Positions 902-53,202 are shown, counted from the stretch's first letter. The stretch is 64,000 nt of DNA from Candidatus Omnitrophota bacterium (GCA_028715965.1 JAQUQS010000001.1:164188-228187); one strand, 5' to 3'. Notes: a model not told the origin generated them from the letters alone. Made by a program: numbers and translations.

Positions 902-1048
902 AAAAATAACCTTACTTTTTGACCGTGCCCATGCGCACGCGTATATATTATATAATAAAGGTCCCGAGTATAAAACCCTAAAAAAAACCGCCGACCATAG
1001 ATCGCATGGCCGGCGGCCTTCCCGTAGGGAGGGGACCCTTGTATATAA

Positions 1049-4000
1049 TTACGCGCGTATCAGTATCTCGTTGGTACGGTCGTATATCGCCTTCAGCTCC
1101 TGGACATCGAACGGAACTATGGGTAGCGACTGTATGAGCCTGTTAAGCGACATCACGATGACCCGTATCTCCGCGGATGTAGCCATCTCGATAAGGTCTT
1201 TCTTGGTCAGGCTTATCTTAGAGACATCCTGTCCCTGGGATATACACAGGTCAACATACTGAGCCAGGGTATATGACAGGAATTCGCTGTCCTCACTTTT
1301 ATAATTATCATTAGAGGCGATCTCGGAAAGCCGGAGCCCGAGCATAACGCTCCTGATCACACCGGTCTCGTCGTAATTAGCGCCTATGGGTGAAAGTATG
1401 GTATCCTCCGGCGACATGTTCCCTATGTGCCAGTTCCTGTCCCTGTGCCCACTGGTCGACAATGTTTCGCCCTTGAACACGGGGAAGATCGTGACCGTGT
1501 TGGCGCGCGTCCTGTTGCCGTTCACGTTCGTGAGCTCATCAGGAAGCTCCTTATATTCCAGGTCACCGTACTCTTCTCTGGAAACCTCAGTTATATTATC
1601 GGTATTGTAAAGCTCCACGAAAGCGCGTCCTCCTGAAAGAGCCTGTATATTATTGAGGAACTCTATTACCTCTTTCTTGTTCATGCTGGTATCCAGCTGC
1701 TGTTTCGGCACCCTTATAAGTTTATAACCGTTCTCCCCGGGCCTGAAGATATGGCTCAGGAACCCTACGTTATCCTCTACGAACGTTTCCATGCCTTTGT
1801 CCGGGGAAGCGGTATAGGCCTGGTCTCCCGCATCGGATATAAGTCCGCTGAGGAAAGTCAACTCATCCCCGGATATCTCCAACCCCATTGAGGCCACAGA
1901 GGTCTCCCCCTCTGTATGGTCCGAGGATAACCGTTCTATCTTGCTGTATAAAGTATCCAAGCTGATAAGACCTTTATAAAAACTTAAAAGCGTATATCCA
2001 CCGAAAATATCCGGATCCCGCTCCACCCACCTTACATTCATTTCCCCGCCATATGTCCTGAGCAGTCTGGGGCCACTGGCCACTACCGAGTCAGGGATAA
2101 GACCCGTGAAAGGAGCTGTTTTAGCATGCTCTTTTACGACCTTTTCCATGGCATCGAGCGACGTTCCGTCGTATTTATCGTTGAACTTGATCGCGTCCTC
2201 ATCCGATAACACTACGGAAATATCGTTGAACCTCAAGCCACCAAGGTTTATCACATAGTCCACATACCCCGGAAGGGCCAATGTCCAATCTCCCTGTTTT
2301 ATTTCCTGCAGGACGACATCCTCTACGCGTCCGTCGGAGGCGTATCTGACATTGACCTGCACCCCATGGCCCTCCGTAACGTATTTTATGTCCAGCTTGT
2401 TCCCCTGGAAATGCCCCGCGCCCGTGGACGTTGACTGTACGCTACCCGGAAGAGTATCATTCACGAAGAACGTCTCGTGCAATGTACTTATCTCTCCGGC
2501 ATTCGTAGCCTCCAGTATCCCCTGTGGGACCGACACGAAGCCATGGTCCATAAGATACATGACATCCTTGTCCTGTCCGTGTTCGAAAACCTGTCCGGAT
2601 ATCTTGAGTTCTTCGAGTATATTACCCTTTAATTTCGAGCTTATGGTCTCCACGCCTCTCCAATAGAAAAGAGGAGCTCCTTCCACCCTGTTATACGGCC
2701 TGACGTCCCCACCGGGAAGGTTCGCGTCCTCGAGAAAGCTCGGGCCACGCTTCTTATCGCTGGCTACGGCCATATCTCCGGCCTTTACCGTCAACCTGAC
2801 CTTCTCAGAGTTAAGCACTCCCCTCCTCATCCACGAAAGCACGGTAAGGAATTGGCCGGTCATTATCTGCATCTCACGGCTTGTACGCGCGCTATCCTCG
2901 CCGTTAGGGGAAAATTTCCGCGTTTTTTCTATTATCATCTGGGCGAAATACCTGGAATTGCCGACAGTATTATTGTCTCGTGAGTACGCTTCAAGGAGGT
3001 TGTTAAGTATTCCCGCCACTATAGGCAACCTGTTCTCGGTCACCTGGAAACCCTGGCTTGAAAATATGGTCTTTACCGCGCCCGGGACATCGCCGTTCAC
3101 CACAAGGCCAGAGGCTTCGTGGACGACTCTTTCCACGTCGTTCATCTCCGGCAATGGTTTGGATACCTCGGCAAAAAGGCTTTTGTTCCTTTGTTCCATT
3201 TTTTTCATCTTCTCTTTTGCTTCCTGCCTGGCTTCCCGTTTTCTTTTGTTGCTGATAGCCTTGCTGAATTCACGAAGATACGCCGCGGCGGTAAGCCTGG
3301 CTTCAAGCCCACGGCTGAGGCGCACGGAAGTCGCCTGGTATTCCTTCAAAGTATCATCATTATACTTGTCATGCAGAGTAAGTAAAGCCTTAAGATACGT
3401 ACTCGAGTCCGCGTCATGGATCACATATTCCTTCTCATCCTTCCATATGGTACGCGTGTTCCATTCTGACGCCCCGGGTGTTAACACGTTGCCTACTCCC
3501 GGCCGGTTAAGGTCCATAAGCAATCCCTGGGCCTGGAAAAGTCCTTCGCCGACCTTGTTATCCGTACGCAATGTCCCGACCTCTATGCCGCCGCAGGCGG
3601 ACACATCCGCCTCGGTAAATCCCGCGGCCTCGGTCGACGGATATGAATCCTGTACCTGCACGTCCGTCGCCGCCAGGAGCTGCCTCTGCTCGTCAAGGCT
3701 GAACCTGGGAACAAATACGAATCTTCCCAATGTTCTTGCTTTCCCGGGGTCCTCTGAGATCATTCTCTTTTTCATTTCGGAGATCTCACGCACAAGTTTC
3801 TTCAGGTCCTCCTTAAGTTTATCGCTATCATCGTTGTTAGATTGCACGTTCCCGTAGATGACCACCTGTACGCCTTTCATTACCAGCTCTTTCACGTTCG
3901 CGTTATCGAACGCGCCTCTTGAATCCGTTCCGGACCCCAGAGTGAAATTACCACCGTTGGTATGATTCCCACCCCTGCCGGCTTTCTCCCTGACCAGGCG

Positions 4001-6664
4001 TCCGGAATACGATACGACCATCTGGTCGTTCCGTAGCATCGCCTCACCCTCCTGTAACAAAGGAGTATCCCCGCCGCCCGGCAGACCCTCGGTGGTATAG
4101 ACATCCTTTTCCCTGGACACGCTGAGCCTCTCCTTGGCCGTTTTTTTGGTCTGGTATACCTGTTCCGCCGTAGGATGCTCTATATCCGCGTTATCGCCAA
4201 AAAGCTCCTTCATGTACCTGATGAAATATTTCATGGTGTTCCCTCTATGGTCTCCGTTGGAAACGGCCCTGAGGTCGAACTCTATGCCCATATCGCTGTA
4301 ATATCTTCTCAGGCTCTCTTTCTTCGGGTTGTTCACCCACTGGTCATATACGACCACATCGTCCCTGTGCGCGCGGGCGACCGCGCCCTGCCAATCGCTG
4401 GACCTCAGCCCGGCCGAAGCCATGTCATAATCCATTCCGAAATTCATTTCGAACAACTCACGATACCCCTGGGGTATGCCCATGAAATCCAGCACCTTGT
4501 CCCCATACCTGTCCTGGGCGTTCCGGGAATATGACTTCCTGTTGCCGTACGTATGCGTGGTGAACGCGACCGTCATTTCCCTCAGCACACGGTCCACCTC
4601 GAAACGCGGGTTTTCTTCCGCCTTTGCCAGCTGTTCCTCAAGTTGTATTTTCCTGTATACGGAAACAAGCGCTGTCTGGGAATCGTTCAAATGAAGTATA
4701 GGAGCTTTCCAGTTGGCTTTATCCTTCATTTCCCTTGCCTCTTCCCTTTTGACGAACTCGAGGGCGGCACGGGAATAAAAAACGGAGAATTCTTCCCATG
4801 TCGGAAGATACGGTGTCTTATCGGGGCTGTACGCGTTCTTGTAGTTGTACAATGAATGCGTGTAATAACTCTCACCGTTGGGCTGTATGTCCCTCACAAG
4901 ATACACTTCTATGCCAAGATCGTTCATCCCCTTACTTACAAGCACATCTACTTCCTTGCCACCCACGGTCACCTTGAATCTGTCCACCTCTTCTATCTTA
5001 CCCAGGATCGGATGGGTCAGCTGCTCCGGGTTCGTATAATCCAGTCTACGCGGATCCTGATCAGGGCTTATACGGTACTGGTAATGCGGTTCGATATGTT
5101 TAAGCCTCGCGCCGGACCCGCGCATGAGTTCCTGCATACCAGCGCCGTGATACTGCATGACCCTGGCCAATCCGCCGGCTTCGTGCCATATCTCCGGCGA
5201 TATCTGCCACAATGTCCTCCCCTCCAGCTCCCTAGCGAATTTCCTTATCCAGTTGCGGTCTATCCAGTCCTTGAACTTCTTAAAAAGCCCGTTAAGCTGT
5301 TTCATAAGGGCATCCCTGTCGATATCAGCCGGCACCAGCATCAGCAATATCTCATCCGCTATTATCATGTCACGATATTCAGAGTTTTCCGGGGCGATAA
5401 GTATCCCCATCAGCTTTTCCTGGTCGTTCTTATCGAGCAGGTTCACCGCTTTTTTAACGGAATAGCTCCTTTCCACCGGATAATGCGGTTCTCCTAAGAT
5501 CACATCGTTCATTATGGATATCGTATCCAGAAGTTCGCCCATGTCGGGGGCGTTTATCATCCTTTGAAGCTCATCCCTGAGGGAAAAAACATCATCCTTC
5601 GCCATCGCGCTCCTGATGGCCCCCGTTCTTTTGGCGGTACGGTATACAAGGTCCATCCTCGCCCTGTATGCGTCATCCGCATCATGGCCCAGCCCATATA
5701 TGTGTAGAAGCTCATCATTATCCAAAAGCTCGGTCCGTACCCCCTCGTTCTCCGGTTTAAAAATATCCTTAAGCAGTATGCTTCCTATATATATGACCCC
5801 GTCCCTTGTCCCGGCGTGGGAGATATTCGTGTGTTCCTTGTCGTCGTTCCATCCTATAGCTACGTCACCAAGAACGGCCCTGAAACGTACCGGCGCCCCG
5901 CGTATCTTATGCTCTTCCATCCATTCTCTTATGGCGACCGCCTCACGTTCGGTAAAAAGCTGGGTTATATCTATTTCTTCTCCGAGGTAAAGCTCCTGGG
6001 ACGTTATCCTGGGCACATAACCTTTTACCCATTTGATCCTTGTGGCCCTGAGCACTCCCGTATCTTCATCCAGATATACCTCAGCCACCTTACCATCCTG
6101 TATAAGTGCCTCTATCATGGGATCGGTGGAAGGCGCGTACATCCCCTTAAGATCATTGTCCAGATCGGCGGCGTCCGGACGGGTATCCTTTTCAACGAAT
6201 ACCGCGAACTTATCACCGCTCTGCCAGCGGCTATCCGTACGGGCATAGTGTTCCCCCAACCTGCCGTCACAAAGTACGGCAACGCCTTTTTCTCCTGACA
6301 GAGAAAAATATATCTCCACCCTGCCGCTTTCCTCCACGACAGAGTCTATGACTATATCCTTTTCCCGCAGGAAATCCGGAGCGGTCTTCAGATATCCAAG
6401 CAAAGCTTTCTGTACGCTTTTTTCTCTGGCCTGGGGATCAAGATAATGCTCGGCTATGGAAAAGAATATGCCAAGTATCTTCCCTTCCGAGTAGATATTG
6501 TTGCGGAAATCAGCTGACCCTTCGGTCGGAGCAAGCTTACCACATATAAGCGGAGGAGTTATGTTTATATTGTCCGTGAAACCGTATATCGTAGAGTTGA
6601 GTAGGAAAGTTAGGAGCGTGATACAGACTATCGCGCTTCGGAAAAGACCTGCTTTTTTGGGCAT
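1049..6664 (-). CDS. Giant (1871 aa) secreted or cell-surface protein of unknown function. It has an N-terminal Sec signal/anchor and no domain I can recognize with confidence.
   Basis: An uninterrupted 5.6-kb ORF. Its N-terminus MPKKAGLFRSAIVCITLLTFLLNSTIYG has signal-peptide n/h regions. A good SD precedes the ATG at 6664 (GGAAGGGGAG-5 nt-ATG). A central segment (SYPSTEAAGFTEADVSACGGIEVGTLRTDNKVGE) loosely resembles the GT-B / glycogen-phosphorylase-synthase nucleotide-binding motif but lacks the PLP lysine. Confidence 0.85.
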   Translation of the reverse strand: MPKKAGLFRSAIVCITLLTFLLNSTIYGFTDNINITPPLICGKLAPTEGSADFRNNIYSEGKILGIFFSIAEHYLDPQAREKSVQKALLGYLKTAPDFLREKDIVIDSVVEESGRVEIYFSLSGEKGVAVLCDGRLGEHYARTDSRWQSGDKFAVFVEKDTRPDAADLDNDLKGMYAPSTDPMIEALIQDGKVAEVYLDEDTGVLRATRIKWVKGYVPRITSQELYLGEEIDITQLFTEREAVAIREWMEEHKIRGAPVRFRAVLGDVAIGWNDDKEHTNISHAGTRDGVIYIGSILLKDIFKPENEGVRTELLDNDELLHIYGLGHDADDAYRARMDLVYRTAKRTGAIRSAMAKDDVFSLRDELQRMINAPDMGELLDTISIMNDVILGEPHYPVERSYSVKKAVNLLDKNDQEKLMGILIAPENSEYRDMIIADEILLMLVPADIDRDALMKQLNGLFKKFKDWIDRNWIRKFARELEGRTLWQISPEIWHEAGGLARVMQYHGAGMQELMRGSGARLKHIEPHYQYRISPDQDPRRLDYTNPEQLTHPILGKIEEVDRFKVTVGGKEVDVLVSKGMNDLGIEVYLVRDIQPNGESYYTHSLYNYKNAYSPDKTPYLPTWEEFSVFYSRAALEFVKREEAREMKDKANWKAPILHLNDSQTALVSVYRKIQLEEQLAKAEENPRFEVDRVLREMTVAFTTHTYGNRKSYSRNAQDRYGDKVLDFMGIPQGYRELFEMNFGMDYDMASAGLRSSDWQGAVARAHRDDVVVYDQWVNNPKKESLRRYYSDMGIEFDLRAVSNGDHRGNTMKYFIRYMKELFGDNADIEHPTAEQVYQTKKTAKERLSVSREKDVYTTEGLPGGGDTPLLQEGEAMLRNDQMVVSYSGRLVREKAGRGGNHTNGGNFTLGSGTDSRGAFDNANVKELVMKGVQVVIYGNVQSNNDDSDKLKEDLKKLVREISEMKKRMISEDPGKARTLGRFVFVPRFSLDEQRQLLAATDVQVQDSYPSTEAAGFTEADVSACGGIEVGTLRTDNKVGEGLFQAQGLLMDLNRPGVGNVLTPGASEWNTRTIWKDEKEYVIHDADSSTYLKALLTLHDKYNDDTLKEYQATSVRLSRGLEARLTAAAYLREFSKAISNKRKREARQEAKEKMKKMEQRNKSLFAEVSKPLPEMNDVERVVHEASGLVVNGDVPGAVKTIFSSQGFQVTENRLPIVAGILNNLLEAYSRDNNTVGNSRYFAQMIIEKTRKFSPNGEDSARTSREMQIMTGQFLTVLSWMRRGVLNSEKVRLTVKAGDMAVASDKKRGPSFLEDANLPGGDVRPYNRVEGAPLFYWRGVETISSKLKGNILEELKISGQVFEHGQDKDVMYLMDHGFVSVPQGILEATNAGEISTLHETFFVNDTLPGSVQSTSTGAGHFQGNKLDIKYVTEGHGVQVNVRYASDGRVEDVVLQEIKQGDWTLALPGYVDYVINLGGLRFNDISVVLSDEDAIKFNDKYDGTSLDAMEKVVKEHAKTAPFTGLIPDSVVASGPRLLRTYGGEMNVRWVERDPDIFGGYTLLSFYKGLISLDTLYSKIERLSSDHTEGETSVASMGLEISGDELTFLSGLISDAGDQAYTASPDKGMETFVEDNVGFLSHIFRPGENGYKLIRVPKQQLDTSMNKKEVIEFLNNIQALSGGRAFVELYNTDNITEVSREEYGDLEYKELPDELTNVNGNRTRANTVTIFPVFKGETLSTSGHRDRNWHIGNMSPEDTILSPIGANYDETGVIRSVMLGLRLSEIASNDNYKSEDSEFLSYTLAQYVDLCISQGQDVSKISLTKKDLIEMATSAEIRVIVMSLNRLIQSLPIVPFDVQELKAIYDRTNEILIRA

Positions 6665-6726
6665 GATATCTCCCCTTCCGGGTTAAGTTTCCATGACACG
6701 ATATGAGCAAAAGATCGGTCTTTCTG

Positions 6727-6760
6727 ATCGACATATTAGAATAGCGCGTGATATGTCGAT
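6727..6760. promoter_or_regulatory. Perfect 10-bp inverted repeat (ATCGACATAT-N14-ATATGTCGAT) in the AT-rich divergent intergenic region. It is a candidate operator or regulatory hairpin.
   Basis: Seen directly: atcgacatat (6727-6736) and atatgtcgat (6751-6760) are exact reverse complements. The repeat lies 65-100 bp upstream of the giant ORF start (6664), inside a ~420-bp AT-rich divergent promoter region (6665-7082). Confidence 0.4.
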
Positions 6761-7040
6761 TGGAAACATCTTAACATATTATTAATTTTTAGTCAATGAA
6801 AAAGTTTGTTTTAAGTTGCTGCTAATTCCAGACATTACAGATTACGATCACAGTATGGAACACCATTTTTTCGCATACATAAGTCATTTAATTTAAATGT
6901 TTTAAATCTATATGCATGCCGTTTCTCTCCCCTGTCGACCCAACACCTCGTTATGTTAGCACAATACATTTTAAGTATTATCTTAAAATTTACTTAACGC
7001 CATCCCGGACATCAGGAGGCATATTATATACAAGCCTATA

Positions 7041-7076
7041 CAAAATTGCAATATCCATCAGTCCTGTAGTAAAATA
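7041..7076 (+). promoter_or_regulatory. Putative sigma70-type promoter for the protease gene (TTGCAA-18-TAAAAT).
   Basis: ttgcaatatccatcagtcctgtagtaaaatac sits immediately upstream of the ATG at 7083. The -10 ends about 8 nt before the ATG and there is no SD, so the transcript may be leaderless, or the real promoter lies further upstream. Confidence 0.3.
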
Positions 7077-7082
7077 CAACTT

Positions 7083-7814
7083 ATGCAGAACCGTTCCGCA
7101 CAGATAATTATCCGGCTTTTCCTGGCCGCGCTCATCTTCGGCGTTATGACGAAAAGTTCTTATCCACTGGGAATGAGCTCGATAATAGACACCATACAAA
7201 GATCGCTAGACGCCATTGTGTTCGTAAAAGCAGAGAATGCCATAGTCGGCGATAGCGCCGATGGTCAAGGCGTGAAACTGGCGAGATTCGAGAGAAAAGG
7301 CGCCGGCATCATAGCCAGTCCTGCCGGGCTCATAATAACCAACGCCCACATCGTCAATAACGCCTCGCGTGTTCTCGTCGCGGTAAGGACCTCCTCTGTA
7401 TACAACGCCAGGGTCTTGTGGGTCTCTCAGGACAAGGACATAGCGTTCATAAAAATAGACACACCCGGTCCTCTTCCGGTAATGACACTTTCGGATTCGG
7501 ACGCGACCAGGCTCGGGGACAAGGTCTATACCGTTGGTAGTTCCGCGCTGTTCAGCGGCACCATCCAACAGGGACTTATAACCGGGATAGGCGCGAGGAC
7601 TGCACCGGATAATGGTAGCGGTAAACACATAAGCATCCTACAAACAGACCTTTCCCTGCACAGGGGCGACAGCGGCGGACCATTGATCGATAGCAATGGC
7701 AATATCCTGGGCCTGTTATTCGCTGGCAGGACGGATATCTCCGGCAAGAGCTATGCCATACCGTCCAATATCATAATGAAAGAGTTCGAAAAACTTCTGG
7801 CGTCACAAAAATAG
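7083..7814 (+). CDS. Trypsin-like (S1C/HtrA-type) serine protease without PDZ domains. It is secreted or membrane-anchored.
   Basis: The catalytic triad motifs are TNAHIV (His), DKDIAFIKID (Asp) and GDSGGPL (Ser). The hydrophobic N-terminus IIIRLFLAALIFGV suggests a signal/anchor. Confidence 0.8.
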   Translation: MQNRSAQIIIRLFLAALIFGVMTKSSYPLGMSSIIDTIQRSLDAIVFVKAENAIVGDSADGQGVKLARFERKGAGIIASPAGLIITNAHIVNNASRVLVAVRTSSVYNARVLWVSQDKDIAFIKIDTPGPLPVMTLSDSDATRLGDKVYTVGSSALFSGTIQQGLITGIGARTAPDNGSGKHISILQTDLSLHRGDSGGPLIDSNGNILGLLFAGRTDISGKSYAIPSNIIMKEFEKLLASQK

Positions 7815-10311: not shown

Positions 10312-11751
10312 TTATACGGTGGTCGCGGTATGTTGATCGGCGTCGCTATCTGAAAATTTATAAGACATATACTCATTCCACATTTTCTCAAAACCGGTCA
10401 TCGACACGAAGAACTCTTCGTCTATAGCGTTGGCGAAGTGTGTTTTGTCTTTTATACGACCGAGCAGGCTCCGTAAACCAGGCCAGCCCCATTTGTCTAT
10501 AATGAATGAGATAGCGGCAAAAGCCGCTTGATAGTACACCTTTATCGACAACTGTTCCGAATAATCAACAAAACCCTTTTCGACAGCGCCGATCTTGAAA
10601 TATTTGCGCCCTTTTACCTCGCTGGCGAGTTCAGCCATGTTTATCGGGGCGTACCGGGCTTGTTCATATACCGCAAGGCCCTCATGTATCCATATGGGAC
10701 AATTACCGTTCGTCGTCATCGAAAGTATAGCATGAGTATATTCGTGGGCAAGTATACCCGCGAGCTCTGACTTGCTCACCCTGGGATCCACGGGCATCCG
10801 TATATTGCCGTCGAAAAAACCCCTGACTATACCGGTCTTCTGGAATATTTCCATAAAGCTGTTCGGGGTATAAAAGATTATCTTAGTATCCTGTGGCGGG
10901 TAAAAATCCAGGTCCGTGCCCACTTTTTCATATATATCCGACAAAATATCCTTGAGCTCATCTTTGTTGAAATCATAGACATCCTCGAACTCCACCTCGA
11001 AGAACGGAAGCTCGATCTTGCCGAGCCGACCGCTAAGCTCTCTTTCTTTTATGGCCTTCTCGAGTTTGTCCATTACTTCCTGGTTCTCCGGATGTGTCTG
11101 GACATATTTGGTCCAATAAAAAATGGCCTTGTCCAGCCTATCCTCCCGGTAGTGGACCTGTCCCAGGAAATCCAGGCACTCATCGCGCGGCAACATCGCG
11201 TAGGAGATGTTCAGGAGCGTAAGCGCGTTACCCATATCGTTACTGTTGTAATACTCTACGGCCTCGTTATACAGGTAGTTAGCTACGTTCTTGCGGGCCA
11301 GGTCCGACATCATGGCCAATTCCGAGGCTTTCTGCATATATTCATACGCGCCTTCACGATCGCCGGCTTCCAGCACTTTCATCGCTTCTTTAACATAGAG
11401 ATACGACAGGTTGGACAATACCCCTTTATTGGTGTTGTCCATCTCGAACGCCATTTCAAGATAATATATGGCTTTTTTTATGTTACCGGAACGGTCAAGA
11501 TAGTCTGAGTATTTGATGTATCCGTAAAGCAGGTTTTTCCTGATATCACCGCTGTCAGGAGCTCCCTCGTAAGCCTTGTGAAGGTAAAATATCGCTTTAT
11601 CATACTTACCTTCGTCTATGTACGCCTGGCCCTTCCTGACATATTCATAAAGCCCGGTACTGGATGGATCGCTCTCGCATCCCGTTATAAAAGAACACAA
11701 TAACAGGCCCGACAATACAGGCACCCACATCCTATGCATAAAATGTACCAT
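10312..11751 (-). CDS. Lipoprotein with TPR repeats and a C-terminal HExxH (peptidase MA-like) zinc-metallopeptidase motif.
   Basis: The N-terminus has a lipobox (LLLCSFITGC). TPR-like repeats occur at roughly residues 40-230 (AYIDEGKYDKAIFYLHKAYE...). The metallopeptidase motif is HEYTHAILS...IHEGLAVYEQ. Confidence 0.7.
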   Translation of the reverse strand: MVHFMHRMWVPVLSGLLLCSFITGCESDPSSTGLYEYVRKGQAYIDEGKYDKAIFYLHKAYEGAPDSGDIRKNLLYGYIKYSDYLDRSGNIKKAIYYLEMAFEMDNTNKGVLSNLSYLYVKEAMKVLEAGDREGAYEYMQKASELAMMSDLARKNVANYLYNEAVEYYNSNDMGNALTLLNISYAMLPRDECLDFLGQVHYREDRLDKAIFYWTKYVQTHPENQEVMDKLEKAIKERELSGRLGKIELPFFEVEFEDVYDFNKDELKDILSDIYEKVGTDLDFYPPQDTKIIFYTPNSFMEIFQKTGIVRGFFDGNIRMPVDPRVSKSELAGILAHEYTHAILSMTTNGNCPIWIHEGLAVYEQARYAPINMAELASEVKGRKYFKIGAVEKGFVDYSEQLSIKVYYQAAFAAISFIIDKWGWPGLRSLLGRIKDKTHFANAIDEEFFVSMTGFEKMWNEYMSYKFSDSDADQHTATTV

Positions 11752-21907: not shown

Positions 21908-24900
21908 TCAATACTCGGCTTTCGGATTATGCACGATAATGGCTGTGGTAGATTGTTCCGGCACCATCAGACAAGCTTCGGTAAGGTGTATATCCAGGTT
22001 CCTCTCTATCTCCAGGAGTTTGAATATCTTCTTCTGGTCTTCCAGCTCCGGCCACAAAGCATATCCCGGGCTGTACCGCCTCCCTTGATCTTCGGACAAT
22101 CCCAGTTCCTTCCTAATCCGGCTATGCACATATTCCGCCAGAGCCTCCGCCAGATGTACGCTCATCCCATGGAGAAGAAAAGACCTGGTACCATCACCGG
22201 AATCCTGCATGGCCTTTATGGCCTCGCTGATCTTACTCCCGAGAGTGACGGCCTGGAAAGCGACTATATCCCGCGGGTGGAAATATCCCGCTATTGACCT
22301 GCCTCCAGCTACACTAAAATCGATTTTTTCCGCCGGTCGTCCCAGGCCGTCCATGACATCCATAACAGTACCGTTAACGACACATTCAAAGTAGCCGTAG
22401 ACGGCCTTCATATCAAGCCACCCCTTGCGCACGCTCTCTTCTTTAAGCTCTTTGAGCATGGAACGGTATTCCTTGTCCAAAAGTTCATTTCTCCTGCCCT
22501 TGTCCGCCAGATAACTCCCCCAAGCCGCGTTAAATACCATTTTCTCATCGAGATACGTGAACACTTCGTCCAGGGGTATGTTCGCCAATACCCGTGTGCC
22601 ATAGAACGGTGGTTCCGGGATATCGTTCCCGGTCAGGACTTCGGGGGCCTTCTTTCCCTCAACCTCGGCGCGAGGCACACCTGTTGATGGTACCGTAGTC
22701 GACCTTCCCGGGCTAGTGCGCCCCTTTACGTCCGCGGAAAGCTCCATGCCCCCGTCCATCAAAGCCCGTACGATACGAAGTCCCGTAAAGGCGTCCCTCG
22801 AGTAAAAAACCCCACCCGGGTACCTGGTGCCGTCGCTCAGGACCTCTATCTCCCTGGCGAACTTTTCGTTTGTCGGAGCGCCCCCGATCATGACCGGATA
22901 ATGCAAACCAGCGTCATGCATAGCCTGGACACATGTACGCATATAACGCGCTGTGGACACAAGAAGCGCGCTAAGACCTACGGCGTCCACTTTGTTCTTT
23001 ACTGCCTCCCTTATTATGACATCGACAGGGACTTGTTTTCCCAGGTCGATCACGGTAAAACCATTATTCTCAAGTATCATCTTCACCAGGTTCTTACCGA
23101 TATCGTGCACGTCCCCGAAAACCGTGGCCAGAAGTATCTTCCCCTTTTCCCCGGACGTGCCTTTCGGCATATACACCTTAAGGTGTTCTATGGCCTTCCT
23201 CATGACCTCCGCGGATTGGAGAACGAACGGAAGCACGGTGTCCCCGCGGTCCAAGGCCTCACCAACCTTTCTCATAGCTTCCATAAGCGTACCGTTCAAG
23301 ATCTCCTCGGCACTTTTTTCCTTTAACGCTTCTTCGAGAGCGGGTATGATATTTACCTTGTCCCTGTCAAAGACGCATTTTTCTACGGATACCCGACAGG
23401 CAAGATCGGAAGAGGATACTGATCTTTCGGATCCCTTCCTATCCTGGTAACGCTCTAGTAACCTCTGCAAGGCGTCTTCCTTCTTCATGAAGATGAGGTC
23501 CTCGCAAATAGCGGCATCGTCCTTATCGATATCTTCGTACTTTACGTATTCCATGGGGTTGACAATAGCGTAATCCAGCCCCGCCTGGACCGCATGGTGA
23601 AGGAATACCATATTAAGCTTTTTCCGCGCCTCTTTAGGGAGCCCAAATGATATGTTGCTGACACCTAATATGGTAGCGGCTCCGGGACACTTCTTTTTAA
23701 AGACCCTTATCGCCTCGATAGTATCCATAGCGGAACTCGCGTATTCTTTTTCTCCCGTCCCCAGCGTGAACGTCAAGAGATCATAAAGCAGCCTACGGGG
23801 ATGTATCCCGTGTCCGTTGACCGCCATATCATACAACCTCGAAGCCACGGATACTTTCTTCTCCACGGTCTTTGCCATACCATCTTTGTCGATGGACAGG
23901 TTAACGACAAAGGCACCGTGCTTCTGGGCCAGGCTAAAAACACGATCCGCTCTCCCCCCTCCATCCTCAAGGTTCACGGAATTTATAAAAGCCGTGCCGG
24001 GATACGATTCGAGCGCACCCTTAAGGACATCCTCATCCGTCGAATCTATCATAAGCGGTGTATCCACGCTTTCGGCAAGACGCTTTACTATGCGAGAAGC
24101 GTCTTCTTTTTCCGTATCCCGCTCGGTAAGCACGGCGCATACATCCAATATATCGGCGCCGGACCTTTCCTGCGACTTGCCAAGTTCGACCAGCCCGTCC
24201 ATATCCTTCTCAATGAACATCCTTTTGGCGGCTTTCGAGCCCTGGGTATTTATCCTTTCCCCGACTTTTATAGGCCGATCCATCATGTCAACATCATAGC
24301 CACGGTAGGACCCCGCGCAGAACACGCGTGTCCGCGTATCCTTCGGTTTACGTCTTTTCAACTCTTTGCGAATGGCCTTTATGTGAAGCGGGGTCGTTCC
24401 ACAACACCCGCCTATCAGGTCTATCCTGTACTTTTCGAGGAATCCCGCCAATATCGCGGCCATCTCGTCCGGGCCAAGAGGATAAACAGTACACCCGTCA
24501 CGTTCCACGGGCAGGCCCGCGTTCGGTATACATGATATACTTACCGGACAGTTGTCGCTGAGGAACTTGATATGCGATTCCATTTCCACCGGCCCCGTAC
24601 TACAGTTTATACCTACTGACGCTGCTCCGAGAGCGCTCATTACGGCCATGACCGCGGACACCTCGGTACCCAGCAGCATCCGCCCGTTGTTCGACAACGT
24701 ACATTGCGCCAATATCGGAAGGTCTTTCCTCCTATCGCTCAATGCCGTGCGTATCCCAGCATAAGCGGCCTTCATCTCCAGGAGGTCCTGGGATGTCTCG
24801 ATAAGAACGGCATCCGCGCCACCGTCAATTATTCCCCGGGCCTGTTCGGCAAAAACTTCCGCCAGCCGCGCGTAACTGATGTTCCCTATTGTCGGATCAC

Positions 24901-25285
24901 TCGACGATGGGAGTTTGCCCGTCGGTCCGATAGACCCTACGACAAACCTGCCATGGGAAGGCGACGAATGTTCATCTGCGGCTTTACGCGCCAGAAGCGT
25001 GGCGCTCCTATTTATATCATAAACTTCTTTTTCCAGGCCATAATCGGCGAGCTTAAGGTAGTTGGCCCCGAAAGTGTTGGTTTCCACAGCGTCGGCCCCT
25101 GACGCGAAATAATCATTATGTATACGGGATACCAACCCGGGGCTGGATATTGAAAGATAGTCCATACACCCGGTCCTTCCTCCGAACATGGCCTCATCCA
25201 GCCCGATCGAAGCCGCGTATGTGCCGAACGCCCCATCCAGGAGAATGATCTCTCTCCTCATCTTATCCGCGAACGTAATGCTCAT
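21908..25285 (-). CDS. metH: Cobalamin-dependent methionine synthase MetH, full length: Hcy-binding, pterin-binding, B12-binding and AdoMet reactivation domains.
   Basis: Colinear domains are present: N-terminal Hcy S-methyltransferase (ILLDGAFGT), pterin-binding, a B12-binding DxHxxG motif (DVHDIGKNLV), and a C-terminal activation domain. Its likely start is M14 (MSITFADK, 25285), which forms an ATGA overlap with the batE stop; the ORF track extends to 25324. Confidence 0.9.
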   Translation of the reverse strand: MSITFADKMRREIILLDGAFGTYAASIGLDEAMFGGRTGCMDYLSISSPGLVSRIHNDYFASGADAVETNTFGANYLKLADYGLEKEVYDINRSATLLARKAADEHSSPSHGRFVVGSIGPTGKLPSSSDPTIGNISYARLAEVFAEQARGIIDGGADAVLIETSQDLLEMKAAYAGIRTALSDRRKDLPILAQCTLSNNGRMLLGTEVSAVMAVMSALGAASVGINCSTGPVEMESHIKFLSDNCPVSISCIPNAGLPVERDGCTVYPLGPDEMAAILAGFLEKYRIDLIGGCCGTTPLHIKAIRKELKRRKPKDTRTRVFCAGSYRGYDVDMMDRPIKVGERINTQGSKAAKRMFIEKDMDGLVELGKSQERSGADILDVCAVLTERDTEKEDASRIVKRLAESVDTPLMIDSTDEDVLKGALESYPGTAFINSVNLEDGGGRADRVFSLAQKHGAFVVNLSIDKDGMAKTVEKKVSVASRLYDMAVNGHGIHPRRLLYDLLTFTLGTGEKEYASSAMDTIEAIRVFKKKCPGAATILGVSNISFGLPKEARKKLNMVFLHHAVQAGLDYAIVNPMEYVKYEDIDKDDAAICEDLIFMKKEDALQRLLERYQDRKGSERSVSSSDLACRVSVEKCVFDRDKVNIIPALEEALKEKSAEEILNGTLMEAMRKVGEALDRGDTVLPFVLQSAEVMRKAIEHLKVYMPKGTSGEKGKILLATVFGDVHDIGKNLVKMILENNGFTVIDLGKQVPVDVIIREAVKNKVDAVGLSALLVSTARYMRTCVQAMHDAGLHYPVMIGGAPTNEKFAREIEVLSDGTRYPGGVFYSRDAFTGLRIVRALMDGGMELSADVKGRTSPGRSTTVPSTGVPRAEVEGKKAPEVLTGNDIPEPPFYGTRVLANIPLDEVFTYLDEKMVFNAAWGSYLADKGRRNELLDKEYRSMLKELKEESVRKGWLDMKAVYGYFECVVNGTVMDVMDGLGRPAEKIDFSVAGGRSIAGYFHPRDIVAFQAVTLGSKISEAIKAMQDSGDGTRSFLLHGMSVHLAEALAEYVHSRIRKELGLSEDQGRRYSPGYALWPELEDQKKIFKLLEIERNLDIHLTEACLMVPEQSTTAIIVHNPKAEY

Positions 25286-26040
25286 TTTTTTAATACTCTT
25301 TCTACCGCGGAGTCTTTTATCCACGCGGATTTCCCGTCAGAACGCCTTGCCCTGACCCATCCGTCCTTACTGTTGATTATATTCACCTTCATACCTTCGT
25401 TCAGGGTGAAGAATTTGGTGGCCGAATCAAATGGCCCGTATAGCGCCTCTACCGCCGGGACCATGACAATAGCGGACGTTCTCTCGTTCACCGCTTTATG
25501 CCAGGCCAGGAAGACATTAAAAACAAGTATTATGGAGAAACATATCAAAATTGTCCTGTGATATCGTGTAACCATCCTCCCCGTTACACCTATAGCCAAA
25601 AGAACAAGGATCACTATCATGGAAACGGACGCCACAATGGTCATCTGGTCCACGCTTAATGTTCTCTCATACACCCGTAAAGGCGTCCAGTTCCACACTC
25701 CTTTTTCCGGCACTACCTTAGCTTTTATATCGGACCTGGCGAACCTGTAATTTGCTCGTATATCAGCATCTCTTGGATCCAACGCTAACGCCCTCTCATA
25801 GTTAAGGATGGCCTTGCCCAGATTTCCCGATTTGAAATATGCCCCCGCCAGGTTGTAATATATGTTAGGGCTTTTCTTCCCGGAGGACAGTATCTTCTCG
25901 TATCCGGCTATCGCCCCGGACCAATCAGCCTGTTCATACTTATCGTTAGCGGACGAGAAAAGTTCGGCCGTTGTCTCCGCCAGGCCTCTACCGGCGGTCA
26001 ACATCAAAATAGCCAGAGATAGTACGATCATCTTCTTCAT
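25282..26040 (-). CDS. batE: BatE-like protein (TPR repeats, TM segment, C-terminal SH3b-like domain) of the aerotolerance-type Bat operon.
   Basis: It has a signal peptide, TPR motifs (YYNLAGAYFKSGNLGKAILNYERALALDP), an internal TM segment, and a C-terminal GMKVNIINSKDGWVRARRSDGKSAWIKDSAV (SH3b-like). It is the last gene of the Bat cluster. Confidence 0.65.
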   Translation of the reverse strand: MKKMIVLSLAILMLTAGRGLAETTAELFSSANDKYEQADWSGAIAGYEKILSSGKKSPNIYYNLAGAYFKSGNLGKAILNYERALALDPRDADIRANYRFARSDIKAKVVPEKGVWNWTPLRVYERTLSVDQMTIVASVSMIVILVLLAIGVTGRMVTRYHRTILICFSIILVFNVFLAWHKAVNERTSAIVMVPAVEALYGPFDSATKFFTLNEGMKVNIINSKDGWVRARRSDGKSAWIKDSAVERVLKK

Positions 26041-27887
26041 ATCTTTATCTTCTCCAGATATACCAGTAATTTTTTGGTTTTTTCAAGTGTTTCCCGGCCA
26101 TCCTTTTTATCCGGATCGAACGCCGCGTATCTGGCCATTTCGCACTTGGCTAGCACCTCTCCGAGCATGGATATTATTTCGCCACCCTTTTGAGTTCCTT
26201 CCACCCTGGCCCTCACGGCATCGACCGTTACATTACCCTTAGGCAGGTCAAGCTTACCCGACACGTATTCTCCAAGCGCCTTGGTAAGAGTATCATAGAA
26301 CAACTCCATATCGCCTTTCTTCAGATAGGATTCGGCTTTCGAGATACCTTTCTTGGCTTTTCCCGGGGCCTTGGTAAAACGGGCATATTTCTTGTCGGTA
26401 CGCATTTTCTCGCTTTTGCGGTATGCCCCAAAAAATATACCGAACAGGACAAGCACAAGTAAGTGCCCGGGCAAAAATAATGGGTTCCTGTATAGATATC
26501 CGCCTATCGGGCTTACTTCCCCGGTATCATCCTTGATATGTATGATATCCTGCCCTATTTTTTCCTGCGGGTAGAATACCTGTTCTTTACCCGAAAGCGT
26601 TACCATCTTTACACTGTTCTCGGTCCCGGACGGTTTCATTACCGAGATCGGGAAAGGTCCCTTCTTTATGGTCTTGTATCTGCCTGAAGCGGGATTAAAA
26701 AAGCTGAAAGAGACCTCGGGTATTTCAGTTACTTTGTCGCTCTTAGGTATTATTACTTGTTCGTATACTTTCTTGTTCGTTTCCCTGGAAACATCCGGTT
26801 CATATGTCTTAAGGTCGTCCGTAATGTTAACACTGGGAGAAGTGACCGTATCCATGTTCCCGGAACCGGAGATAATGGTCTTTAATACCACGGGATCCCC
26901 GACATTGACTTTGATGGGATCTATGGACGCATCCATATCGAAATACCCTACAGCGCCCTTAAAGTCCAACGGCTTACCTTCAGACGGGAAAGGTAATACC
27001 GACACATTAAGCCCTTTCGACTCGAGTTCCACTGGATAAACATCATATCCGCCAAAAGCACTATCGAAGAAATCGTCATTAAAAACGCTCATGCCGAACA
27101 GGGAGGATCTTCTGCGCGAGACCTGTTTCCTCACCAGCATTTTGCAATTAAGCCTGGCCGGACCGATCTCATATTCCCCTTCTTTTATGGCGAAGATGTT
27201 CTGCCTGAAAACAAGTACTTCATATCTACGTCCGCCCACTGTCTCCTGGGTCCTTTGCGGCTCATTGAAATCCTCCCCGGAAAAACCTTCATGAGCATAA
27301 GCCGGGAATTCTATATCCCTCAGGCCCACTCCATCCACGTAAAGTTTTATGGTGAGTATCGCCGATTCGTTGACATAAAGGCTGTTCTTGTCTATGCTCA
27401 TGGAAAGGAATATATTATCACCGGTATAAGCGGGTACGGAGGTAGCGTCCGGGACACTGGACATCGGGGGTTGTCCGGCCTGCTGGGTCACGGCGGGTTT
27501 ACCCGTTATGGAGAGGTCGAGCGCCGGAGCTTCATATACCTTACCTCCCTGTTCGGCCCGGAACGGGCCTATTTTATAAGTGCCTTCCCTGCGTGGAAAG
27601 ACCAGATACGTATGTGTGATCGATCGTGACATCTTCCCGTTCACAATGGTCATGCTGGTGGTCGGTCCTATGTACTTTATGTTAAGACCATCCACCTGCG
27701 GGATATCAGGCGCGTCCACATCCTGCGCTCCCCTGAACTCCAGGTAAAGGTATAGGGGGTTACCGACCGAAGCCGTGCTTCTCTCTATCCTGGCGTTGAA
27801 GGCCATTCCCTCTTGTGCCCATCCCGGCAGGACATGGCCCAACAGAAAAACGAATATCAGCGATAATAACCGTGCTTTTTTCATCAC
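26037..27887 (-). CDS. batD: BatD-like protein (616 aa, secreted or outer-membrane associated).
   Basis: It has a signal peptide (MMKKARLLSLIFVFLLGHVLPGWAQ), the size and position typical of BatD between BatC and BatE, and a C-terminal TM segment. It overlaps batE by 4 nt. Confidence 0.65.
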   Translation of the reverse strand: MMKKARLLSLIFVFLLGHVLPGWAQEGMAFNARIERSTASVGNPLYLYLEFRGAQDVDAPDIPQVDGLNIKYIGPTTSMTIVNGKMSRSITHTYLVFPRREGTYKIGPFRAEQGGKVYEAPALDLSITGKPAVTQQAGQPPMSSVPDATSVPAYTGDNIFLSMSIDKNSLYVNESAILTIKLYVDGVGLRDIEFPAYAHEGFSGEDFNEPQRTQETVGGRRYEVLVFRQNIFAIKEGEYEIGPARLNCKMLVRKQVSRRRSSLFGMSVFNDDFFDSAFGGYDVYPVELESKGLNVSVLPFPSEGKPLDFKGAVGYFDMDASIDPIKVNVGDPVVLKTIISGSGNMDTVTSPSVNITDDLKTYEPDVSRETNKKVYEQVIIPKSDKVTEIPEVSFSFFNPASGRYKTIKKGPFPISVMKPSGTENSVKMVTLSGKEQVFYPQEKIGQDIIHIKDDTGEVSPIGGYLYRNPLFLPGHLLVLVLFGIFFGAYRKSEKMRTDKKYARFTKAPGKAKKGISKAESYLKKGDMELFYDTLTKALGEYVSGKLDLPKGNVTVDAVRARVEGTQKGGEIISMLGEVLAKCEMARYAAFDPDKKDGRETLEKTKKLLVYLEKIKI

Positions 27888-33954: not shown

Positions 33955-35961
33955 TTATTGAGAGAAGAAGTTACGGACTTCAGAGGCATCCCGTACCAGC
34001 CGGCAACCGGGTATGCCGTTAAGGAACCTCGACCCATAAGGCCGGGTAAGTATCCTCGGATCCAACACGACCACTACACCACGATCACTCTCCGACCTTA
34101 TCAACCGTCCAAAGCCTTGCTTGAACATCATTACAGCCCTGGGGACCTGATAAGCGTAAAAAGGGTCCTGCCCTTCCTGCCTGATACGATCCATCCGGGC
34201 AAGAGCGACAGGCTCATTAGGAACGGGGAACGGCAAACGGGTCAGGACGACACATTCCAACGCTCTTCCGGGGACATCCACCCCTTGCCAGAAAGTCGAA
34301 GTTCCCATCAAGATCGAGTCCCTTACCTGCTTGAACACGTCGAGCAATACATATCGCGGCAGTTCGCCTTGTTTAAGTATCTTTACGTCCTCCCTCTCCT
34401 CCCTTATGGCGCCTGAAATCTGGTTCAGCATTTCATAACTCGTAAAGAGTACGAACATCCTCCCCTTCAATATGTCATAGATCTCCAGGACATGGTCCTT
34501 GACCTGTTCCCGAAATTTTCCGGCGGCGTCATTCGGGTCACTGATATTCCGCGGAACATATAAAAGCACCTGGTTCTCGTGGTCGAACGGGGAGTTCAAT
34601 ACAAGTTCCGCCGCGTCGCTTATCCCCAATCTTGAGCGGATAAACCCGAAATCGGCCTTTCCGTGACCATCCGGGCTCGTAAGTGTTGCTGATGTAAGGA
34701 CCACGGGCGCTACCCTGCTAAAAAAAGCCCTTTCCATCTCTTCGCCCACATCGATCGGAGCACTTCTGAAAAAAACCTCTATAACGCCTTTTTTTTCGCG
34801 TGTTTCGGCCCAATACACATGTCTTATGTCCTCCTGGCCCGTTATGAACACCATATCCGTGGCCAGTCCGGCGCACTCCGCGCTGAGCGCGCTCGCCCTT
34901 TCAGGCATTTCTTCCAGAAAAGATATCCTGGCGCTATCCCTCCCATAAAATATCATGTCACAGGCCCGCCTTAATCCGTCGGCAAGGTCGACAAGACCGT
35001 CACGTAACTCACTAACGCTGAACATCTCAGGAGAGAACGAATATGGCCCGCTTCCCCTGCCGGTGAACATGCCGGCCGCGTGCGCGAAGAAACGTTCCGC
35101 GTATTTTTCCGTCATGGCCAGGCCCTCTTCAAGCTCCGTCACGTTCTCGAAAGAGTCTTTTAATATCCCCTTGCCTTCCTTGATGAAGTTCTTTATCTCC
35201 TTGAATAACCGTTCTGCGGTAACGCTTCCGGTACTGTGTGAAAAATGTGATGTGGCTACATCTTCCAGCATATGGGCCTCATCAAAGACCAGGGCATCAT
35301 ATTCGGGAAGTATCCTGCCGGACGCGGCATCATCGGAAAAGACCAGGGCGTGATTAGCCACCAGTATATGGGAATTCTCCTGCTCTATCCTGGCTTTTCG
35401 ATAAGAACAGGAATCAGCGAACTGGCAGGCCCTCTGATGGCAGAGGCCGGACACCCGGCAAAATTCCGCCCAGACAGATGTGGTCGGCTGAAAGTCCAGG
35501 TCAGTTACCAGGCCGGAACGGGTATGTCTGGCCCACTCGATTATTCTTTCGGCTTCCTCCCTCTTTTTTCTGGACCTTGAGAACCTTGAACCGTCATATC
35601 CCTGGACTCTTCTGGCGCAGACATAGTTCTCTGATCCCATACATAAAGCGTACCGCAGGCGATCATTTATCGTATCCCTGAGAAAAGGCAGGTCTTTGAC
35701 ATATAACTGTGCCTGCAAGGCCTTCGTATATGTAGACACCACTACTTTTTTATTCTCACGTACGGCCCACTCCGTAAAAGGCACAAGATATGCCAGGCTC
35801 TTCCCGACCCCGGTACCAGCTTCCACTATCAGGTTATTCCCGAGCGATATCGCCTCTTCTATGGCGGACGCCATTTCCAGCTGTTGAGGCCTTAACTGGT
35901 AATTCTTCAAGGATCCGGACAGGGACCCTTTTTCGGAAAATACGGATTCACTATAATTCAT
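33955..35961 (-). CDS. dinG: DinG/Rad3-family ATP-dependent DNA helicase (DEAD_2 plus Helicase_C_2).
   Basis: Walker A is EAGTGVGKSLAYLVP, the DEAH box is VFDEAHMLED, an Fe-S-like Cys cluster is CMGSENYVCARR...C...C, and C-terminal helicase motifs are present (LMGTSTFWQGVD...). Confidence 0.8.
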   Translation of the reverse strand: MNYSESVFSEKGSLSGSLKNYQLRPQQLEMASAIEEAISLGNNLIVEAGTGVGKSLAYLVPFTEWAVRENKKVVVSTYTKALQAQLYVKDLPFLRDTINDRLRYALCMGSENYVCARRVQGYDGSRFSRSRKKREEAERIIEWARHTRSGLVTDLDFQPTTSVWAEFCRVSGLCHQRACQFADSCSYRKARIEQENSHILVANHALVFSDDAASGRILPEYDALVFDEAHMLEDVATSHFSHSTGSVTAERLFKEIKNFIKEGKGILKDSFENVTELEEGLAMTEKYAERFFAHAAGMFTGRGSGPYSFSPEMFSVSELRDGLVDLADGLRRACDMIFYGRDSARISFLEEMPERASALSAECAGLATDMVFITGQEDIRHVYWAETREKKGVIEVFFRSAPIDVGEEMERAFFSRVAPVVLTSATLTSPDGHGKADFGFIRSRLGISDAAELVLNSPFDHENQVLLYVPRNISDPNDAAGKFREQVKDHVLEIYDILKGRMFVLFTSYEMLNQISGAIREEREDVKILKQGELPRYVLLDVFKQVRDSILMGTSTFWQGVDVPGRALECVVLTRLPFPVPNEPVALARMDRIRQEGQDPFYAYQVPRAVMMFKQGFGRLIRSESDRGVVVVLDPRILTRPYGSRFLNGIPGCRLVRDASEVRNFFSQ

Positions 35962-50020: not shown

Positions 50021-50059
50021 ATATATCTTCCCCTTTCTAGAATATATAGACATATTTAC

Positions 50060-53157: not shown

Positions 53158-53202
53158 GCCATTCTCTCCTTCATATGTTCTTTGGCCTGGCGGCGAATTC
53201 AA

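Follow-up and report, generated by a model that had tools for sequence, protein, structure and literature searches.

Bacteria of the phylum Omnitrophota are widespread and ultra-small, and they probably depend on a host. We analyzed a stretch of 64,000 nucleotides from a Candidatus Omnitrophota bacterium (GCA_028715965.1, JAQUQS010000001.1:164188-228187), referred to below as the window, in which a single open reading frame (ORF) of 1871 codons plus a stop codon, at 1049..6664 on the minus strand, raises the question of what kind of protein it encodes. The initial annotation of this DNA, which had located the ORF correctly, described its product as a secreted orphan protein with no recognizable domains. 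We find that the protein is very probably a lineage-specific mosaic of Candidatus Omnitrophota, provided with a signal peptide and built from recombining blocks. The order of the blocks is Sec signal peptide, LAPP motif, N0, Nmod-a, Nmod-b with a GT-B glycosyltransferase, HEL-cupin-MID, and a C-terminal domain (CTD) that ends in ...IRA. For the question of what the protein does, we set out below an explanation that, taken as a whole, we regard as having an even chance of being right.

The blocks, and the motifs within them, are located as follows.

6581..6664, minus strand: Sec-type signal peptide, residues 1-28, with n-region MPKKAGLFR, an h-region of 13 residues and c-region NSTIYG before F (predicted cleavage site).
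6545..6562, minus strand: ITPPLI, residues 35-40, the counterpart of a conserved 'L(A/S)PP' motif that follows the signal peptide.
6170..6547, minus strand: N0 'head', residues 40-165, helices and then a small beta-sheet, placed straight after the signal peptide whatever follows.
5600..6169, minus strand: Nmod-a, residues 166-355, alpha/beta, with conserved E195, H283 and D317-E318-x-x-H321-x-x-G324-x-x-H327.
5216..5599, minus strand: Nmod-b, residues 356-483, a helical extension with conserved P396, E398, Y401, A406 and W472.
3260..5215, minus strand: GT-B glycosyltransferase, residues 484-1135, with motifs SPEIWHEAGGLAR, HLNDSQ, FTTHTYGNR, SGRLVxEKAGR and FVPRFS..DSxPxTEAAGFTEAD.
3545..3649, minus strand: residues 1006-1040 within the GT-B domain, the stretch singled out by the initial annotation, which aligns with the C-domain motif of GlgP.
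2690..3259, minus strand: HEL, residues 1136-1325, coiled-coil and helical, always before the cupin.
2195..2689, minus strand: cupin domain, residues 1326-1490, with both cupin motifs at kept spacing.
1790..2194, minus strand: MID, residues 1491-1625, a linker domain of lower confidence that travels with HEL-cupin.
1052..1789, minus strand: CTD 'tail', residues 1626-1871, alpha/beta and helical.

The protein is not an orphan. An entry in the NCBI database (P0001) is identical to it and carries the name 'MAG: glycogen/starch synthase [Candidatus Omnitrophica bacterium]' (MAG, metagenome-assembled genome). Another 21 homologs, of 1,480-1,960 residues, are 37-45% identical, all named ones coming from Omnitrophota, and more than 30 full-length homologs were found overall (37-49% identity). 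In an alignment of 22 sequences, conservation runs along the entire length of the protein. A phmmer search with residues 672-1871 against 1.84 billion cluster representatives added a wide circle of module-sharing relatives, 412 representatives reaching E <= 1e-3 and 119 of these passing E <= 1e-30.

These relatives show how the protein is put together. Eight hidden Markov models derived from the family were mapped onto 165 retrieved proteins, in which the blocks recur in fixed sub-combinations. HEL, cupin and MID are always contiguous, either inside proteins of 2,000-5,900 residues or alone at ~400 residues. The GT-B and cupin blocks are 40-50% identical to their counterparts in P0060 (4796 residues), P0075 (5930), P0091 (5076) and P0070 (2429). 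Nmod-b stands directly before GT-B in 53 copies from other architectures, and we therefore count it as part of a GT-B supermodule. A paralogous family of ~800-890 residues (P0037, P0038, P0041-P0049 and P0053) has the arrangement signal peptide-N0-HEL-cupin-MID-CTD; the ~870-residue paralog corresponds to the 1871-residue protein minus the Nmod-GT-B insert. The Pfam domains found in the large relatives comprise hexokinase, phosphoglucomutase/phosphomannomutase (PGM/PMM), nucleoside triphosphate (NTP)-transferase with a ManC beta-helix, fructose-bisphosphatase (FBPase), classical phosphoglucose isomerase (PGI), type I phosphomannose isomerase, UDP-GlcNAc 2-epimerase, HAD hydrolases, iron-containing alcohol dehydrogenase and methyltransferases. 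Within the 1871-residue protein, self-BLAST finds no internal repeats, as had been noted from the sequence by eye.

All full-length members with a source name come from Omnitrophota/Omnitrophica, and a scan that took a single genome for each GTDB species gave 11 loci, nine labelled Candidatus Omnitrophota and two labelled 'uncultured Planctomycetia'. The latter label stands on two MAGs with full-length homologs (L006, CAYQUS010000005.1; L007, CAZGOG010000036.1), and it may reflect submitter taxonomy within the PVC (Planctomycetes-Verrucomicrobia-Chlamydiae) group, in which case the family would not really occur beyond the phylum in these two. In a cluster look-up, the named module-sharing relatives are from Omnitrophota MAGs with two exceptions. 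One is a stand-alone HEL-cupin protein of 360 residues from an Elusimicrobia MAG (P0100), which shows that the cupin block also exists beyond Omnitrophota; the other is a GT-B-only relative from an unclassified 'uncultured bacterium', with the NCBI name 'Phosphorylase'. Confinement to one lineage, which the initial annotation had proposed to check, thus holds for the named full-length members and is qualified by the two Planctomycetia-labelled loci and by these two module relatives. No gene neighbourhood is shared across three long contigs that carry homologs. Adjoining homologs, we observed a 1,464-residue ORF without a Pfam match (L004, 13661-18055) and a protein of more than 2,569 residues with a GlnD_UR_UTase domain (L003, 15469-21652); long genes may cluster near homologs.

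Recognizable domains are present as well. Residues 489-762 match PF08323 Glyco_transf_5 ('starch synthase catalytic domain') with 31 bits against a cut-off of 22.7, and 20 of the 22 family members match this model (best E 3.4e-16). The curated glgA model TIGR02095 gives 19.2 bits against a trusted cut-off of 328, with matches in 20 of 22 members (best E 1e-11), the C-domain model PF00534 Glycos_transf_1 gives no match at E <= 1, and comparison of E. coli GlgA with the family by hhalign yields nothing significant. The second half of the domain points to phosphorylases. PF00343 (carbohydrate phosphorylase) matches residues 955-1032 weakly (15.4 bits, cut-off 27), and TIGR02094 (alpha-glucan phosphorylase) reaches 17.3 bits against 191.7, with matches in 10 of 22 members (best E 2e-6). 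E. coli GlgP aligns with the family over the C-domain motif (hhalign E 1.5e-4; 17 bits by hmmsearch), and in a tblastn search with GlgP, positions 3569-3802 are the sole match in the window. The family motif matched to GlgP reads FVPRFS..LLAATDVQVQDS.P.TEAAGFTEAD. The resemblance to GT-B enzymes and glycogen phosphorylase that had been noticed in this stretch is thus genuine. It had also been argued that full-length homology to a characterized family would make the protein routine; such homology exists at the level of domains but does not extend over the full length.

The conservation of individual residues of the GT-B domain was assessed in 33 family copies and in 55-58 copies from other architectures. 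Essentially invariant are E491, G497, G498, L499, R501, D661, Q663, H704, T705, N708, R709, R889, K894, S1007, E1018, E1040 and G1041, with R889 and K894 unchanged in 91 copies. We take the pair R889-x4-K894 to be the equivalent of R300/K305 in GlgA and of R569/K574 in phosphorylase, an assignment made by motif alignment and from the alignment with GlgP, and not from superposed structures. In the same way, EAGGL (E495-A-G-G-L) presumably corresponds to KTGGL and GNGGLG, and we regard LNDSQ, FTTHT and GAVARAHRDDV as resembling the phosphorylase motifs LNDTHP, YTNHT and NGVARIHSEIL. E1012, a Glu in 32 of the 33 family copies, aligns with the Glu of TEASG in E. coli GlgP and is presumably equivalent to E377 of GlgA and E672 of rabbit glycogen phosphorylase. 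In 17 of 58 GT-B modules of other proteins the position of E1012 is occupied by Gly and that of G1015 by Glu, so that the acidic residue appears shifted by three; this swap may stem from the register of the alignment or may be a genuine variant of the active site.

Since the GlgP alignments match the family motif at this place, the lysine that holds pyridoxal phosphate (PLP) in phosphorylases falls on D1020, which is also where the EX7E motif has its second Glu. Of the 33 family copies, 26 carry Asp and 6 carry Asn at this position; among the 58 others, Asp is found in 48 and Asn in 10. The initial annotation was right that the PLP lysine is missing, and because this Schiff-base lysine is replaced by Asp/Asn, the GT35 mechanism cannot operate. 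At the position of the KTGGL lysine the family has Glu, and the other copies have Pro, Ala or Leu. The proposal of a degenerate glycan-binding module, on the other hand, does not fit, because R889, K894, E1012 and E1018 show little or no variation in the family, as do the N-domain motifs, and most of these residues are unchanged also in about 58 module copies from other architectures, as expected of an active enzyme. Judged from its motifs, the GT-B domain looks like a working PLP-independent retaining enzyme that lies between GT5 and GT35.

The cupin domain was recognized by structure prediction. An AlphaFold model of residues 1136-1871, built from the family alignment, has a predicted local distance difference test score (pLDDT) of 80.7, and the top 10 matches in a Foldseek search of this model against the PDB are cupin phosphoglucose isomerases from Pyrococcus (P. 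furiosus) and Thermococcus (T. litoralis), with E-values of 3.5e-5 to 3.5e-4 and TM-scores of 0.52-0.63 relative to the target. The cupin sequence alone finds no sequence match in the PDB, and the Pfam model of this isomerase family, PF06560, matches one of 22 family members at E 0.009, below the gathering cut-off. By motif spacing, not by three-dimensional coordinates, the ligand positions are H1418, Q1420, D1425 and D1469, against H, H, E and H in canonical cupins. Each of the four is 93-100% conserved. In 59 copies from other architectures, conservation of 95-100% is also seen for H1374, H1396, K1427 and D1481. The CTD forms the exact C-terminus in 50 of 51 carriers, all 50 of which end in Ala, typically as ...ALIRA-COOH; the carriers include P0163, in which the upstream part is a UDP-GlcNAc 2-epimerase. 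R1651, T1725, D1765, R1771 and D1823 are invariant, and such invariant polar residues suggest that the CTD is more than a passive tag.

The N-terminus bears on where the protein acts. In a Kyte-Doolittle scan of the whole protein, the only strongly hydrophobic segment spans residues 4-30, in agreement with the N-terminal signal or anchor originally proposed. Of the 22 homologs, 16 have an n-h-c layout in which small residues occupy -3/-1 (AYA, CSA, SYG or SSA before the predicted cleavage site), and so do all relatives with N0. These N-termini have 2-5 Lys/Arg, then a hydrophobic core of 13-18 residues, and then a c-region; homologs without a signal peptide look 5'-truncated. Inspection of the sequence shows neither a lipobox nor a prepilin motif, and a lipoprotein or pilin-type signal was rejected. 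The positive-inside rule, the short h-region (13-18 residues) and the AXA-like c-region argue for a Sec signal that is cleaved, leaving most of the protein outside, and not for an N-out anchor. The pattern thus indicates a cleaved Sec signal, with both cleavage and export as predicted consequences, and the earlier designation as a secreted protein is supported in so far as the conserved signal peptide makes export probable.

Downstream of the signal peptide, an L(A/S)PP or LAxPS(I/L)F motif lies 10-15 residues past the predicted cleavage site and is followed by N0 (P0025-P0145). This arrangement recurs in more than 40 proteins of Omnitrophota whose downstream modules differ widely, and the motif may serve this lineage specifically as a signal for sorting or anchoring; it was not found in term searches of two preprints on long Omnitrophota proteins (10.1101/2023.11.21.568195; 10.64898/2026.06.07.730766). 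For N0 itself, no known homolog was found outside the relatives described here. A weak match of the full-length profile to Lactobacillus S-layer fragments (E 0.12) disappeared with a profile of 22 N0 sequences, whose best matches are unrelated ribosomal proteins (E 0.01), and S-layer homology was therefore rejected.

Nmod-a also occurs independently, in P0023 (3219 residues, with an ARMT1/DUF89 phosphatase domain) and in two copies in P0075. Its DExxHxxGxxH motif (residues 317-327, nucleotides 5684-5716) is largely kept in 19 copies from other architectures, the Asp, the Glu and the first His in 18-19 of them and the last His in 15. The motif resembles the HExxHxxGxxH zinc site of metzincins, but Asp replaces the first His. 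Although the motif is conserved, there is no match to a metalloprotease fold, and we keep the metzincin reading as a lead only; Nmod-a is possibly a metal-dependent module. An AlphaFold model of residues 1-485 from the family alignment has a pLDDT of 78, and Foldseek searches with it against the PDB and BFVD gave no significant match (best E 0.1 and 0.018, respectively; TM-scores 0.1-0.2). Weak kinase-like matches dominate in both libraries, but kinase catalytic motifs are absent and we assign no fold to this region. The structural comparison that had been recommended was thus informative for the C-terminal model, which matches cupin PGI, and not for the N-terminal 485 residues.

We hypothesize that the protein is an exported, PLP-independent alpha-glucan glucosyltransferase combined with a sugar-acting cupin, which works outside the cytoplasm of the producer; we hold this mechanism tentatively, at slightly less than even chances. 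The signal peptide would carry the protein across the inner membrane, and its site of action would therefore lie beyond the cytoplasm of the producer: the periplasm, the cell surface or an interface with a host. At this site, the GT-B domain might act, independently of PLP, on a polymer of the alpha-glucan type, adding glucosyl units to it or removing them, with nucleoside diphosphate (NDP)-glucose or glucose-1-phosphate as donor or product. The cupin could bind or isomerize a sugar or sugar phosphate at its altered H-Q-D-D site, and the head and tail domains may serve in targeting, anchoring or assembly. Domain identities, modular build, conserved residues, restriction to the lineage and signal-peptide features are observed here, whereas cleavage with export, catalysis, substrate and reaction direction are predictions.

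Several observations weigh against this mechanism. Outside the cytoplasm one would not expect to find nucleotide sugars, ATP or sugar phosphates, and the hexokinase, NTP-transferase and S-adenosylmethionine-dependent domains of the relatives speak for chemistry of a cytoplasmic type. None of the curated glgA models (TIGR02095, NF0019xx) or phosphorylase models reaches its trusted cut-off. The GT-B domain, as aligned, has neither the KTGGL lysine nor the PLP lysine, and the cupin motifs appear to lack the canonical metal ligands. Finally, N0, Nmod-a, MID and CTD are without an assigned fold or function.

The main competing explanation is that the database name is functionally right, and that the protein is a cytoplasm-facing storage-glycogen synthase using ADP- or UDP-glucose, with the cupin performing a PGI-like step. 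The NCBI name and the PF08323 score above cut-off agree with it, as does the conservation of the residues that correspond to R300, K305 and E377 of GlgA. Furthermore, relatives fuse the module to hexokinase, PGM, NTP-transferase and classical PGI, and these fused enzymes would make up a complete route from glucose via NDP-glucose to glucan, which needs ATP and NTP. Within the 64-kb window, glgA, glgC and glgX of canonical type were not found; for glgA this would suit a storage role of the large protein, although it is a weak test. Nevertheless, we consider a storage synthase rather unlikely. The curated GlgA model scores 19 against 328 bits, there is no PF00534 match and the KTGGL lysine is Glu; the C-domain motifs are nearer to phosphorylase than to GlgA, ~1,200 residues of conserved extra modules are left unexplained by a simple synthase, and the signal features argue against the N-out anchor.

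The conflict between export and cytoplasmic chemistry would be removed if signal peptide, LAPP motif, N0 and the ...IRA CTD together formed an Omnitrophota-specific export or delivery cassette for interchangeable sugar-metabolism enzymes that work in the cytoplasm of a host or prey cell to which these bacteria attach. The cargo would be the GT-B and cupin enzymes here, and hexokinase, PGM, NTP-transferase and phosphomannose isomerase in relatives. We consider this unlikely. Were it true, the protein would serve as a metabolic effector and channel the sugar-phosphate pools of the host into alpha-glucan or out of it, the cargo would work where ATP and NDP-sugars exist, and the topology paradox of both preprints would be resolved.

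A further reading, in line with the degenerate glycan-binding module suggested by the initial annotation, is that the enzyme-like folds are catalytically dead and the protein is a structural, adhesive or glycan-binding surface protein. The replacement of the PLP lysine, of the KTGGL lysine and of all but one of the four canonical metal ligands of the cupin is what such a view would predict, the curated family models all score far below their cut-offs, and donor substrates are scarce at the predicted extracytoplasmic site. Dead domains normally drift at catalytic-type sites, however, whereas here the replaced positions are themselves conserved (Asp/Asn at 1020; Q1420, D1425 and D1469 at 95-100%), and R889, K894, E1018, H704 and D661 are invariant in ~90 copies with an overall identity of ~40%. 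We therefore regard dead folds as very unlikely. A true orphan or a spurious long ORF, for which the by-eye assessment alone spoke, is already refuted by the identical deposited protein, the more than 30 homologs, the 412 representatives, the Pfam match and a mean pLDDT of 78-81, and we give it practically no weight.

The surroundings of the gene contain the following elements.

6670..6677, minus strand: ribosome-binding site AAGGGGAG, 5 nucleotides 5' of the ATG, read from the sequence.
6665..7082, no strand: AT-rich divergent intergenic region of 418 bp, GC 0.344 versus 0.499 for the whole window.
6796..6768, minus strand: promoter-like site for the large gene, inside the 418-bp region.
6721..6766, no strand: inverted repeat with arms at 6721-6736 and 6751-6766, each of 16 nucleotides, 88% complementary, with a 14-nucleotide spacer.
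980..1017, minus strand: hairpin GCCGCCGGCCAT...ATGGTCGGCGG with a subsequent T8, resembling an intrinsic terminator, in the gap from the ORF to cstA.

The gene lies between cstA and a divergently transcribed protease, as first described. The downstream neighbor cstA (PF02554, E 1e-97; ATG at 901) is on the same strand, and the gap of 147 bp between it and the ORF holds the GC-rich hairpin with T8 and then a promoter-like site. Because the hairpin and T8 separate the stop codon from cstA, the large gene looks monocistronic. The upstream neighbor is a trypsin-like serine protease that starts at 7083, and the intervening region at 6665-7082 is the longest gap among the ~52 genes of the window. 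The AT-rich control region postulated there is real in length and composition, and homolog loci too often have AT-rich upstream regions, but it shows nothing beyond an ordinary divergent promoter region. An Rfam scan of the 418 bp gave no match at E <= 1, and three promoter-like sites compare with 1.7 +/- 1.4 by chance; a structured RNA or special regulatory element was rejected. The inverted repeat is located 57-102 nucleotides upstream of the ATG, just downstream of, or adjoining, the predicted -10 element, and may be an operator or a hairpin in the 5' untranslated region.

Further members of the Omnitrophota mosaic repertoire were not found in the 64-kb window. We observed a LonC/LonB-like AAA protease of 838 residues (50686-53202) and a secreted protein of 479 residues with tetratricopeptide repeats and a peptidase-MA-like domain (10312-11751). 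The other large ORFs are ordinary housekeeping genes, encoding MetH (21908-25324), ClpB (47414-50053), a DinG-like helicase (33955-35961) and BatD (26037-27887).

GlgA is a cytoplasmic enzyme of ~480 residues. The GT-B domain shares with it (GT5, TIGR02095) the retaining GT-B signature, the PF08323 N-domain, the GGL loop, the H-(T/N) motif after a beta-strand (FTTHT here versus FTVHN) and, judged by motif alignment, the R-x4-K pair and the Glu of E-x-x-G-x-T. It differs from GlgA in the Glu at the KTGGL lysine, in the absence of a PF00534 C-domain, and in being embedded in a protein of 1,871 residues with a signal peptide. The name 'glycogen/starch synthase' consequently over-interprets a domain-level match, and about two thirds of the protein are uncharacterized. 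With alpha-glucan phosphorylase (GT35), the C-domain motif FVPRFS-x-DQRxLLAATDVQVQDS-x-P-x-TEAAG can be aligned, but the PLP lysine (K680 in the rabbit muscle enzyme; TEASGTxNMK) is Asp/Asn here. The cupin of Thermococcales PGI (PF06560; PDB 1x82, 1j3p and 4lul) is the best structural match and agrees in motif spacing and in the T-x-G-H start of motif 1. The domain described here is distinguished from it by H-Q-D-D in place of H-H-E-H, by an identity of 10-16%, and by its constant position between HEL and MID.

The closest known systems are the very long proteins of the same phylum. One preprint ranks GT5 glycogen-synthase-like domains second in frequency among the domain classes of giant Omnitrophota 'Archaeovorins', in which glucose-phosphate isomerase, PGM, FBPase and similar domains also lie in predicted extracellular regions, a localization called puzzling there (West-Roberts et al. 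2023, 10.1101/2023.11.21.568195). A second preprint, from 2026, reports PF08323 in 153 of 916 long Omnitrophota proteins and makes it central to a 'Module 2' for sugar metabolism; a signal peptide or transmembrane helices occur in 94% of those proteins, and the same topology conflict is discussed (10.64898/2026.06.07.730766). The 1871-residue protein has in common with the long proteins the phylum, PF08323, the sugar-phosphate and nucleotide-sugar companions and the topology conflict, and its signal-peptide-like N-terminus recalls their signal peptides or transmembrane segments. The preprints focus on proteins of 10,000 residues or more, up to over 100,000, and ours is a short relative; it has a predicted signal peptide only and no further transmembrane helices. 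The eight-block architecture, N0, the ...IRA CTD and the ~870-residue paralog did not turn up in term searches of the two preprints.

Modular sugar-metabolism proteins of Omnitrophota have thus already been published, and the assignment of the 1871-residue protein as a short, signal-peptide-bearing member is well supported. The very long Omnitrophota proteins are an open puzzle, in that export signals are combined with enzymes that should need cytoplasmic substrates. Because the same paradox is found here in a protein small enough for expression and assay, it offers a practical entry point for testing the site of action and the activity of the modules, and the ~870-residue paralog, which has no GT-B insert, provides the natural comparison for dissecting function.

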